The notes under the pieces are model-generated. The model ran no database searches. It was not told the origin of the DNA and saw only the letters and a list, made by a program, of their open reading frames with translations. Position numbers and translations under genes: made by a program. DNA of 53,171 nt from an uncultured Clostridia bacterium (lineage in GTDB: Bacteria > Bacillota > Clostridia > Oscillospirales > Oscillospiraceae). Below are positions 42,319-47,615 of the stretch, one piece after another. The stretch spans positions 1 to 53,171 of the forward strand of contig CAMAZB010000001.1 of NCBI GenBank assembly GCA_945862785.1. The letters run 5' to 3'. Position 1 is the stretch's first letter. Each line of letters starts with the position of its first letter.

Positions 42319-43587
42319 ATGGACGTTCTGGAGAAGCTGACGATCCTGACCGACGCCGCCAAATACGACGCCGCCTGTACCTCCAGCGGCGGTAACCGGA
42401 CTGCCCGGAAAGGATATATCGGCAACACATCCTCCTCCGTGGCGGGCTGCTGCCACACCTTCTCCGCCGATGGCCGGTGTGTCACGCTGCTGAAAGTGTT
42501 GATGACCAACCGCTGCGTCTACGACTGCAAGTACTGCGTCAACCGCCGCAGCAACGACACCCGGCGGGCCGCCTTTACCCCCGAGGAGCTTGCCGACCTG
42601 ACCATCAACTTTTACCGGCGGAACTATATCGAGGGCCTGTTTCTCTCCTCCGGCGTGTTCCGGAGCCCGGACTATACCACGGAGCTGATGATCAAGGCCC
42701 TGCGGCTCCTGCGGGAGCAGTACCGCTTCAACGGTTATATCCACGCCAAGGCCATCCCCGGCACGGCCCCGGAGCTGGTGGAGCAACTGGGGCTTCTGGC
42801 AGACCGTCTCAGCGTCAATATTGAACTGCCGTCCGAAACGGGACTGAAAACCCTGGCGCCGGACAAGACAAAAACCGCCATCCTCTCCCCCATGCGGCAA
42901 ATCCAGGTCCGGAACCAGCAGAACAAAGAAGAACTGGTAAAATACCGCCACGCGCCCAAATTCGCCCCGGCCGGTCAGAGCACCCAGTTGATCGTGGGGG
43001 CTACTCCGGATTCCGACTTTCATATTCTGCGGCTGACCCAGGGGCTGTACGACCGCTACCGCCTGAAACGCGTGTTCTACTCCGCCTATGTGCCGGTGGT
43101 GGAGCACGCATTGCTTCCCTCCAAGGACATAAAGCCGCCCCTTCTGCGGGAGCACCGTCTCTACCAGGCGGATTGGCTGCTGCGGTTTTACGGTTTCCGG
43201 GCGGAAGAGCTGCTGGACGAGGACCACCAGGATTTTGACCCCAGGGTGGACCCAAAATGCAGCTGGGCGCTGACCCATCTGGATTTTTTTCCTGTGGAGG
43301 TCAACACCGCCGATTACGAGTCGCTGCTCCGTGTCCCCGGCGTAGGGGTAGTCTCCGCCAGGCGCATTCTGTCGGCGCGGCGGGCCGGTCCTCTCCACAT
43401 TGAGAACCTGCCTAAGTTGGGCGTCGTCATGAAGCGCGCGCAGTATTTTCTCACCGCCTCCGGCAAAATGCCAGACGGACTCCGCTTCACCCCGGACAGT
43501 CTGCTACGGGGTCTCATCGCCGCAGAGCGGCCTTCCCTACCCCAGCAGGAACTGGTGCAGCTATCCCTCTTTGACACCGCGGTATAG
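42319..43587 (+). CDS. Putative DNA modification/repair radical SAM protein (TIGR03916-like)
   Basis: AAKYDAAC, CVYDCKYC, YIEGLFLSSG, REHRLYQADWL, HhH C-terminus. Confidence 0.9.
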   Translation: MDVLEKLTILTDAAKYDAACTSSGGNRTARKGYIGNTSSSVAGCCHTFSADGRCVTLLKVLMTNRCVYDCKYCVNRRSNDTRRAAFTPEELADLTINFYRRNYIEGLFLSSGVFRSPDYTTELMIKALRLLREQYRFNGYIHAKAIPGTAPELVEQLGLLADRLSVNIELPSETGLKTLAPDKTKTAILSPMRQIQVRNQQNKEELVKYRHAPKFAPAGQSTQLIVGATPDSDFHILRLTQGLYDRYRLKRVFYSAYVPVVEHALLPSKDIKPPLLREHRLYQADWLLRFYGFRAEELLDEDHQDFDPRVDPKCSWALTHLDFFPVEVNTADYESLLRVPGVGVVSARRILSARRAGPLHIENLPKLGVVMKRAQYFLTASGKMPDGLRFTPDSLLRGLIAAERPSLPQQELVQLSLFDTAV

Positions 43588-43604
43588 AGCCCGCCTGATC
43601 GCAT

Positions 43605-44468
43605 ATGATGAACCACGAAATGATATATTTCTATGACGGCAGCTTTGACGGATTTCTCTGCTGCGTCTTTGACAGCTACGCCAACAAAGAAGTCCTCACC
43701 GCGATCTCCCGCGATGAGGACTTCATACCTACGCTCTTTGCTTCCCGTGTAATTGTTACTGATAGAAGTCACGCAAACCGTGTATTTAAAAAGGTTGTAA
43801 AGGTTTCTCCCTATGCAGCAAATCTTCTGCAAAAAGGCTTCCTGACCTGTATGCCGGAGAAGGAGATCCACCTGTATCACCTGGTGGTCAAGCTGCTGCG
43901 GGACGGCCCGGGATTTCTTCGAAACTTCTCTGACGAGACGCTGTTTCCCGTGATCACTGCCGTCCGCCATCTGAACGGAGAGGCCCATCTGCTGAAGGGA
44001 TTTATTCGTTTTTCCGAGTTGGGCGGCGTTCTGGGCAGCGAGATCGAGCCCAAAAACCGAGTATTACCGGTCCTTCGCAGCCATTTCTGCGCCCGGTACA
44101 TGAATGACCGTTTTTTCATTTATGACCGCACCCACAAGGAAGCCCTGTTTTACGCCGCCGGAAAAGCCATGATCCGTCCTCTGGAGGATTTTCAAATGGC
44201 TCCGCCGGATGACGCAGAAGCGGCGTACCGGGTCCTTTGGAAGCGTTTTTACGATACCATCGCCATCAAAGAGCGGTATAATCCCAAGTGCCGGATGCGG
44301 AATATGCCAAAGCGGTACTGGAACACCATGACAGAATTTCAGGACGAAGCTTTTTTCAGGTCCCAAAACTCTCTCGCAGCCGTTCCAGACCCCTCCGCTC
44401 CAAACGGGATACCTGCACCTGCGACACCCCCAGGATCCGGGCTGTCTGCTCCTGAGTCAGGCTCTTGA
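43605..44468 (+). CDS. TIGR03915/DUF4130 putative DNA repair protein
   Basis: YDGSFDGFLCC, EAH..KGFIRF, HF..RY, LWK.FYD.I.I..R.N...MPKRYW. Confidence 0.88.
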   Translation: MMNHEMIYFYDGSFDGFLCCVFDSYANKEVLTAISRDEDFIPTLFASRVIVTDRSHANRVFKKVVKVSPYAANLLQKGFLTCMPEKEIHLYHLVVKLLRDGPGFLRNFSDETLFPVITAVRHLNGEAHLLKGFIRFSELGGVLGSEIEPKNRVLPVLRSHFCARYMNDRFFIYDRTHKEALFYAAGKAMIRPLEDFQMAPPDDAEAAYRVLWKRFYDTIAIKERYNPKCRMRNMPKRYWNTMTEFQDEAFFRSQNSLAAVPDPSAPNGIPAPATPPGSGLSAPESGS

Positions 44469-45518: not shown

Positions 45519-45824
45519 TTATCGAATCGTTACCAGCCGCCCGATCCCGGCGGCATCCAGGACCCGCTTTGCCTGTTCCGGCACATGGCACACCAGGATA
45601 CTGCCGTCCAAAAGGCGCATTCGCTGCTGCGCCCGCAGGATCAGGGCAATGCCGGAGCTGTCCATGAATGTCACGCCGGTCATGTCCAGCACCAGTTTTT
45701 TCGGCAGCGCCGCATCCACCGCCAGCTCCAACTCCCTCATGGCATCTCGGGCACCATGATGATCGATCTCGCCGCTGAGCTCCAGCAGCAGATTTCTGTC
45801 CATGCTTTTCGCGTTGATCTCCAT
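45519..45824 (-). CDS. spoIIAA: Anti-sigma F factor antagonist
   Basis: GEIDHH and FMDSSG STAS motifs. Confidence 0.93.
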   Translation of the reverse strand: MEINAKSMDRNLLLELSGEIDHHGARDAMRELELAVDAALPKKLVLDMTGVTFMDSSGIALILRAQQRMRLLDGSILVCHVPEQAKRVLDAAGIGRLVTIR

Positions 45825-45849
45825 ATTGACTCCCCTATTACAATAAGTT

Positions 45850-46062
45850 TTGGTTGGAAGCCCAGCATCCAGCTGGGCTTCTTTCCATCTCGTGCCTAAG
45901 CTACAATAAGGGGAGCAGCTGGCTGACCATCACCCCCTTGGGCTTCCATGTCCGTTAGAAAGACTGTCAGCCATCCCCTTGTTGCAGCGTTCGATTTGAG
46001 CAGGTTGAGCCATAGAGTTCGCGTCACCCAATAGATTGAATCGGCAGCGAGAAAAAGATGGA
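45850..46062 (+). ncRNA. Putative IS110 bridge RNA
   Basis: 5' hairpin at 45857-45881; target loop at 45920-45973; donor loop at 45992-46043, with guides complementary to the reconstructed target and donor. Confidence 0.72.
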
Positions 46063-46095
46063 TTCCGGTTGCAGATTTGTATGGGAGGCAGATAC

Positions 46096-47306
46096 ATGAA
46101 CTCTGTTGGCATCGACGTTTCCAAAGGCAGAAGCACGGTTGCAGCTATGCGTCCCTTTGGAGAAGTCGTCATCTCACCCTTTGAAGTATGTCACACCGAC
46201 AGTGAACTGAGCGAGCTGGCAAGGCGGCTCAAAAGCCTGGACGGTGAGACGCGCGTAGTCATGGAGGCCACAGGAAATTACCATTTGCCAGTAGCTCAGG
46301 CACTCCATGATGCGGGACTATATGTTTCCGTTGTCAATGCAAAGCTGGTGCATAGCTACGGGAACAACGAGTTGAGGCGAGTCAAGACCGACAAGAAAGA
46401 CGCTGTAAAGCTGGCAAACTATGGCCTTGACCGCTGGCTTTCCTTGCCGAGATACATCCCGGAGGAGAATACCCGGTTGCTGCTGAAGAACTGCTATCGG
46501 GGCAGTACCAGCAGGGATGCAAGGTGCAGACCATACAGAAAAACAACCTGGTTTCACTGCTGGATACCACATTTCCGAATGCAAACCGCTTGTTTCGCAG
46601 TCCTGCCCGTGCAGATGGCCACGAAAAGTGGGTGGACTTTGTAGCCGAGTTCTGGCACTGCGAGTGCATCCGCGAATGCTCTGAAAAGGCGTTTATGACC
46701 AAGTATCAGCGTTGGTGCAAAAAGAATGGCTATAATTTCAGCGAGGAAAAAGCCCACAACATTTACAACGAAGCCTGCGGGTGCGTTGGCGTTATGCCTA
46801 AGTCCGGCACGACAAAGCTACTTGTAAAACAAGCCGTATCTCAGTTCAAAGCGACCTCCTCTGCTCTCGCTGCGCTCAAGCAGGAGATGCAGACGCTGGC
46901 GGCTCAACTTCCGGAGTACCCAGTCGTCATGGGAATGTTCGGCGTTGGTCCAACACTCGTCCCACAGCTCATGGCTGAGATCGGCGATGTGCGGCGTTTT
47001 CACTCCAAAAAAAGCCCTCGTGGCCTACGCCGGCATTGACGCCCCACCGAACGATTCCGGCGATGTTACAGGCCGGCACAAGGCCATGAGCAAGATTGGC
47101 GCATCGTCCCTGCGGCGGACGCTTTTCTTGTCATGAGTGCCTATTTGGAGAACTCGCCGCCTGATGAACCCGTCTACCAGTTCATGGACAAGAAACGCTC
47201 CGAAGGTAAACCATACCGCGTTTACATGATGGCATCCGCTAACAAGTTCCTGTGGATTTACTATGTCACCGTGAAAGCCTACTCGAACACGCTGGAGCAA
47301 GTCTGA
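46096..47306 (+). pseudogene. IS110 recombinase/transposase with three frameshifts
   Basis: MNSVGIDVSK, MEATGNY, KTDKKDA, AYAGIDAPPNDSG; frame breaks near 46500, 47010 and 47130. Confidence 0.9.
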
Positions 47307-47615
47307 TCTCGTCACATACTGCTGGCTGGCCGCCGTTTCATTTTTGAGATGCTAAGCGGTTTGACTTAGTGCAGCCTTTTTGTGATATACAAAATCTCAG
47401 ATTTCCTGCTTGACAAAACTTAGCAGGTCTTTTTAGGCTTTGGTATATTTTACCGTCTGTGTTTTCCTTATTTTCCATTATATGGTTTGTCCTACTTCTT
47501 TTTTGTCGTTTTTCCGCTCAGACAAATATTCTTTTTCCAACGCTTGCCGTCCCATCGCCGATACGCTATAATGAGATATCACCGCCAGTCGCCGGTACAG
47601 AAAGGATCATACATC

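Follow-up and report, generated by a model that had tools for sequence, protein, structure and literature searches.

The window, meaning the whole 53,171-nt stretch of Clostridia DNA analysed here, carries a spoIIA operon with an IS110 element in the Shine-Dalgarno (SD) site of its first gene. Read from the sequence, the element spans 45837-47428 (1592 bp) between flanking CT cores at 45835-36 and 47429-30 and is oriented antisense to spoIIAA. Its left non-coding end measures 259 nt and its right end 122 nt, with CT at both, a layout that recurs in relatives. The spoIIAA-like gene is followed by spoIIAB, which scores above its NCBIfam cut-off, and then by a sigF-like gene. The features of the locus, with the basis of each call in brackets, are:

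45519..45824, minus strand: spoIIAA-like gene (anti-sigma-F antagonist), first of spoIIAA-spoIIAB-sigF and owner of the target SD (STAS Pfam domain; NCBIfam spore_II_AA is the best match, below cut-off)
45830..45836, minus strand: SD of spoIIAA, AGGGGAG, retained on the gene side; the core consists of its first two bases (sequence)
45835..45836, plus strand: left CT core (sequence; boundary common to relatives)
46096..47306, plus strand: IS110 recombinase gene, broken (PF01548 and PF02371 spread over three frames; alignment to the intact relative L002)
47420..47430, plus strand: left donor TTAGCAGGT and right CT core (sequence; relatives)
47477..47508, minus strand: candidate spoIIA promoter, a GACAAAAAAG box plus TATAAT, now 1.6 kb from the gene (motif conservation; putative function)

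Given these cores, the donor and the empty target read as the preliminary description had joined them. Removal of the element in silico restores AAAAAGGGGAGTCAAT-ATG on the minus strand ahead of the spoIIAA-like gene, and the empty allele in the closest relative is AAAAAGGGGAGTTCAAT-ATG. The purine-rich SD is uninterrupted in all 16 relative loci examined (of 29), six of which carry the GACAAAAAAG box and TATAAT 45-90 nt before spoIIAA. Contigs from four DNA runs (four studies) cross the right junction, and those of three of these runs also cross the left junction by at least 31 letters, all without differences, so the insertion is real and shared. Neither an empty site nor a circle joint was found in contigs of the 4 DNA and 4 RNA runs, which is no proof of absence; RNA-run contigs span the left junction, such contigs being silent on transcription, strand and level. 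In every DNA run examined the spoIIA operon is cut off from the candidate promoter, raising the question of whether the species still sporulates. Elsewhere in the window, at 42319-44468, a Radical-SAM-like gene is followed by a partner gene, a pair that we take to be a putative DNA modification/repair system.

Both the DEDD_Tnp_IS110 and the Transposase_20 Pfam domains are present in the window frames of the recombinase, which carry three frameshifts relative to L002, near 46499, 47007 and 47123; this copy cannot now move by itself. L002 scores 209.9 against the NCBIfam IS110 model NF033542 (cut-off 140), and the D-E-D-D and SG serine residues align with IS621. The genome holds one other copy, L018, which is intact, 83% identical and equipped with a different guide; its flanks are matched by that guide at 7+8 nt, and its site is an SD too.

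Predicted bridge RNA and junction promoter

The left end folds into a putative bridge RNA, whose parts and associated promoter elements, all on the plus strand, are:

45839..45844: -10 hexamer TACAAT of the predicted circle-junction promoter (17-nt spacer, 60 of 60)
45857..45881: 5' hairpin of the predicted bridge RNA (fold; two-sided change in 9 of 10 pairs)
45920..45971: target-binding loop, with its closing stem and an inner hairpin (fold; relatives)
45930..45938: left target guide TCACCCC-CT, 7 nt followed by the core (covaries over -7..-1; no signal at -9/-8)
45956..45962: right target guide TAGAAAG, 5 nt and the complement of the core (covaries over +1..+5, 72 right flanks)
45999..46005: left donor guide AGCAGGT (identical to 47422-28; nearly invariant in relatives)
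46030..46035: right donor guide AATAGA (four states, changing with the left end)
47410..47415: -35 hexamer TTGACA of the predicted junction promoter (sequence; relatives)

The motifs quoted in the preliminary description are all in place (hairpin 45857-81, ATCACCCCCT at 45929-38, TAGAAAG at 45956-62, AGCAGGT at 45999-46005 and AATAGA at 46030-35), and its claim of a bridge-RNA-like fold was borne out. The segment 45835-46070 folds at -91.1 kcal/mol (z -5.22; none of 200 shuffles equally stable), and a structure alignment of 37 relatives, picked for diversity from 43 candidates, shows two-sided changes in 28 of 47 predicted pairs and 90-99% pairing in six helices covering the 5' hairpin, outer stem and target loop. 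A search of Rfam with the window RNA returned no match at E up to 1.

For the donor loop, the proposed guides hold up, while its closing stem CGATTT/GAATCG, which pairs in 22-37 of the 37 rows, is rivalled by a shifted TTCGATT/GATTGAA that pairs in 25-37; two-sided change is scant in both registers, and RNAalifold recovered neither. Right donor guide and left end change together, as CTAT/ATAG in 157 of 165 rows, CTGT/ACAG in 27 of 29, CTCC/GGAG in 28 of 30 and TTGC/GCAA in 4 of 4 (duplicates included); the left donor guide covaries little because it is nearly invariant in relatives. At the joined ends the -35/-10 spacer is 17 nt in all 60 distinct full-length elements; the ends were located with these very hexamers, so only the spacing is informative. 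Judged from its sequence, the window copy appears to be a genuine IS110 bridge-RNA element and a member of a clade that targets SD sites.

Insertion sites of relatives and guide-target covariation

Relatives were gathered with scaffold patterns that omit the target guides. Metagenomes contributed 118 loci (of about 400), the GTDB collection 120 (of about 300) and a set of 101 related genomes 30. These gave 256 pattern matches, 22 of them without a left end, and 174 distinct sites once a 45-nt flank and a parsed guide were required and similar flanks were merged. Most of the named hosts belong to Oscillospiraceae or to related Clostridia. The recombinases fall into protein clades A (with the window copy), B and C and a small group D, in a quick version of the tree that includes two wrong-frame rows (L041, L175). 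A single target guide recurs on scattered tips of this tree (L038, L039, L055, L100, L107, L239), which suggests that elements exchange guides by recombination or that assemblies are chimeric. Because identical guides scatter in this way, some rows are mosaics or mis-assemblies.

At 105 of the 174 sites the opposite strand has an ATG-led frame that begins 6-21 nt from the core, against 9% of 2139 shifted control positions, and with GTG and TTG added the figure is 123 of 174 against 21%; these counts treat kin as independent and rest on a simple ORF call (an ATG opening at least 60 codons, or 25 to the contig end). Most relatives thus lie at RBS-like targets upstream of start codons, as the preliminary description had anticipated. 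ATG-led sites make up 61/93 in clade A, 9/17 in B1, 16/28 in B2, 15/26 in C and 0/3 in D, and 4/7 among clade A members with CCTTTCT guides. In L311 the start codon annotated independently by RefSeq is 14 nt away from the core. Insertions at SD sites are always antisense to the host gene. They leave the SD on the gene side, the core lying at its 5' edge or ahead of it; in clade C the element end completes the SD instead.

Both target guides covary with the flanking DNA, the second expectation of the preliminary description that was confirmed. The left guide tracks the flank from -7 to -1 but at neither -9 nor -8 (167 single-guide sites, within-clade shuffles), its match averaging 5.06 of 7 against 2.86 +/- 0.11 in shuffles (93 distinct guides); the right guide tracks +1 to +5 over 72 flanks, at 0.67-0.93 per position versus 0.28-0.57. 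None of 2000 shuffles reaches the observed values at these 7+5 positions, and no covariation was found beyond the 7+2+5 guide positions; the site, covariation and 16S-tail counts include L005/L179, whose guides were misread. A guide-target match of at least 11 of 14 occurs at 57 of 68 two-flank sites (leaving out L041, L175, L213 and L005/L179). The motif is not imposed by the protein, since there are also guides of non-SD type whose flanks match them and are likewise non-SD. Two small clade A lineages (L037, L090, L098 and L119, L141) carry such guides and flanks and are candidates for escapes from the SD aim. Group D (L168, L176, L178, L210, L215) shares the RNA scaffold but has TT or a changed core and non-SD targets, and three of its members occupy one orthologous site.

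The window copy itself fits its site poorly: its guides match at 9 of 14 positions, mostly in the right half, a level reached by 3357 places in the genome and thus no better than chance, and only 8 of the 68 two-flank sites show a match as low. The earlier proposal that this lineage is programmed to insert at ribosome-binding sites therefore stands for the relatives, through their sites and covariation, and is weak for the window copy, in which the guide motifs are present yet pair with the target at chance level. The copy likely arrived via a partial match or has drifted since; half-match insertion is reported for IS621 in the available part of 10.64898/2026.08.31.748434.

From the strong covariation we infer a guide-directed mechanism for the clade. 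As in IS621, the excised circle would close through the CT core, and its junction would join TTGACA and TACAAT into a promoter; the target guides of the bridge RNA would pair with 7 bases on one side of a CT and 5 on the other, where the recombinase would insert the circle. Selection would hold the rewritten guides on the SD, a target abundant in every host and outside reading frames, and landing outside coding sequence is a likely benefit.

Anti-SD guides, CT registers and the clade C end

The 16S tail of the genus is GGATCACCTCCTTTCTA in 11 of 12 loci, and the one-base difference of the left guide from the 16S 3' end, noted in the preliminary description, is correct; extended through the right guide, the guide-encoded target of the window matches the tail at 13 of 14 positions, joint best of 130 guides. 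Among the distinct guide-encoded targets of clades A-C, 117 of 127 share at least 5 nt with the tail and 107 share at least 6, against 20% and 6% of random CT-centred 14-mers; about 10 of the 127 guides are not SD-like, and in group D none of three shares at least 5 nt. We judge it highly probable that these elements form an IS110 clade in Clostridia whose predicted guides mostly spell the SD complement and which is likely steered to gene starts.

The anti-SD CACCTCCTTTCT holds three CT dinucleotides, all used as core by guides. The first CT is the best fit for all 24 clade C guides, while the 103 A/B guides favour the second (90) over the first (8) and third (5); the weaker register assignments are soft, since only 81 of the 127 guides match the tail at 9 or more of 14 positions. 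The median offset to the ATG moves with the register, from 11 (15 sites) through 14 (61) to 17.5 (4), the third register resting on 7 sites. The clade C cut falls within the SD, and the left end of these elements starts with CCT, so that the product reads AGGAG again: the SD duplex with the 16S tail stays at -14.7 kcal/mol before and after insertion, versus -7.2 with an A-type end (5 sites), and over 20 sites the clade C end gives -12.6 versus -5.65. The two changed end bases lie in the promoter spacer, where they are free to vary. L311 joins a C-type end to a guide in the second register, so the coupling of end to register is not strict, and the C-type end may have come first, permitting the register shift. 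Another reading of the compensating end is a longer shared core in clade C. The use of three CT registers, the offset moving with the register and the SD-rebuilding end of clade C are what this analysis adds.

The SD bias could also arise without selection for an SD aim, through inheritance of an ancestral CTCC seed with slow guide drift and the purging of coding copies. Guide sequence explains most of the start-site excess; guide-matched places in G000 at 12 or more of 14 are ATG-led in 29-47%, versus 60% observed, and the remainder, which may reflect purging of coding insertions or host composition, gives such survivor bias a share, as do the non-SD guides of group D and of two relatives at 42-50%. 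We nevertheless hold this account to be decidedly unlikely: there are 130 distinct guide-encoded targets with free distal positions, used in three registers and by clades whose identity is only about 52-57%, and the register shift alters both guides yet keeps the same 12-mer. The SD aim, moreover, outlasts deep divergence, since the recombinases of different clades are on average only 52-65% identical.

It is highly improbable that the 16S rDNA 3' end is the true or original target, with RBS insertions as by-products. The near-perfect fit of the window guide to the tail would suit it, but most guides match the tail in its SD part only, no tail-element junction occurs in the GTDB collection and no 16S flank appears among the left flanks listed; the search found no 16S-tail insertion, with the tail assembled in 19 of 121 genomes and absent from the G000 assembly, rRNA operons often being unassembled. 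That the loop anti-SD acts mainly at the RNA level, for instance by masking the element's own RBS, with DNA targeting secondary, is very improbable as well, for although each element has a GGAGG-type RBS downstream of the loop, the left guide is unpaired with the RBS in the fold of 45850-46115, and the covariation between guides and DNA flanks extends to positions beyond the SD.

Effects on the host gene and relation to known elements

A/B insertions weaken the SD duplex from -12.6 to -9.4 kcal/mol (28 sites), and that of spoIIAA goes from -8.7 to -7.9; they also cut the gene from its promoter. A terminator-like site lies on the host-gene strand in 31 of 60 elements. Because the duplex is weakened, the promoter cut off and terminator-like sites present, the insertions are perhaps not harmless. 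No outward sigma-70 promoter was found in the left end. Free read-through on the host-gene strand was not borne out: a crude detector, applied with no shuffle control, placed terminator-like sites at right ends 27 times on the plus and 0 times on the minus strand, and at left ends 13 times on the minus and 5 on the plus.

A bolder reading, which we consider unlikely, would tether the clade to the ribosome code: guides repeatedly rewritten from the host SD/16S tail would shift among the three CT registers, the donor end would co-evolve to repair the SD, and insertions would spare the protein while uncoupling the promoter, acting as excision-reversible switches, here on spoIIA.

RBS targeting by IS110 is already known from mycobacterial IS900, which inserts between the RBS and the start codon. 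This IS110-family element of Mycobacterium avium subsp. paratuberculosis is described, in the accessible part of PMC8141618, as using the motif CATGNNNNNNTCTCCTT and rarely lying in coding sequence, and it resembles the window clade in a target with start codon and SD on the opposite strand. IS900 carries an antisense hed frame that borrows the host RBS (same source), whereas in the window clade the host gene keeps or regains its SD, and no hed-like antisense frame spans the element in 60 elements (longest median 173, maximum 447 of about 530 codons).

IS621/ISCro4 (PMC11208160, as far as available; PDB 8wt6, 9t56) share with the window clade a DEDD plus Transposase_20 protein, a left-end bridge RNA (predicted here) with a 5' stem-loop, a target loop that varies and a conserved donor loop, a CT core, a left guide of 8-9 nt reading the bottom strand and a right guide of 4-7 nt reading the top strand. 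They differ in a protein that is only remotely similar (E 5e-16 over two stretches; 402 versus 328 aa) and in the target, ATCAGGCCTAC for IS621 and the SD here. REP-targeting IS110 elements such as ISPpu10 (available text of 10.64898/2026.03.19.712850) likewise direct a guide to an abundant non-coding host motif, but what they target are long, identical repeats in which a stem-loop is required, whereas the SD targets are short, degenerate and read by more than 100 guides. ISEc21/ISEc11 seekRNA (PMC11187229, in part) are alike in a circle junction that makes a promoter (predicted here) and a non-coding region that guides targeting, and unlike in having other targets, with no core duplication reported for ISEc21 and the RNA of ISEc11 lying downstream.

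No ISfinder-named member above 30% identity occurs among the 30 plasmid matches listed. Searches of the accessible literature turned up no publication that connects a bridge RNA with SD targeting, although large supplementary guide tables may include the clade. Term searches of the accessible text of PMC11208160, PMC11187229, 10.64898/2026.08.14.744561, 10.1101/2025.10.25.684509 and 10.64898/2026.03.19.712850 returned no SD-targeting bridge RNA, the first of these being without 'Shine', 'start codon' or 'IS900'; section 8 of 10.64898/2026.10.21.760802, in its available part, does not treat SD targeting.

The clade, from a host group unrelated to that of IS900, offers a readable guide-level account of the old observation that IS900 sits at translation starts. 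Its approximately 130 natural guide-target pairs bear on how bridge RNAs get reprogrammed and what holds them on target, and the register shift with its compensating end makes a sharp, testable case of guide/donor co-evolution. The elements are candidate bridge recombinases native to gut Clostridia, with insertion positions that allow altered gene expression without gene disruption.

Some relatives carry additional sequence. In L186 the right end of one element, after the recombinase stop, holds another element of the same family, whose non-SD guide matches that right-end sequence. In L027, L195, L192 and L232, extra sequence of variable length sits inside the inner hairpin of the donor loop, and the insert of L027 resembles a separate small repeat element.
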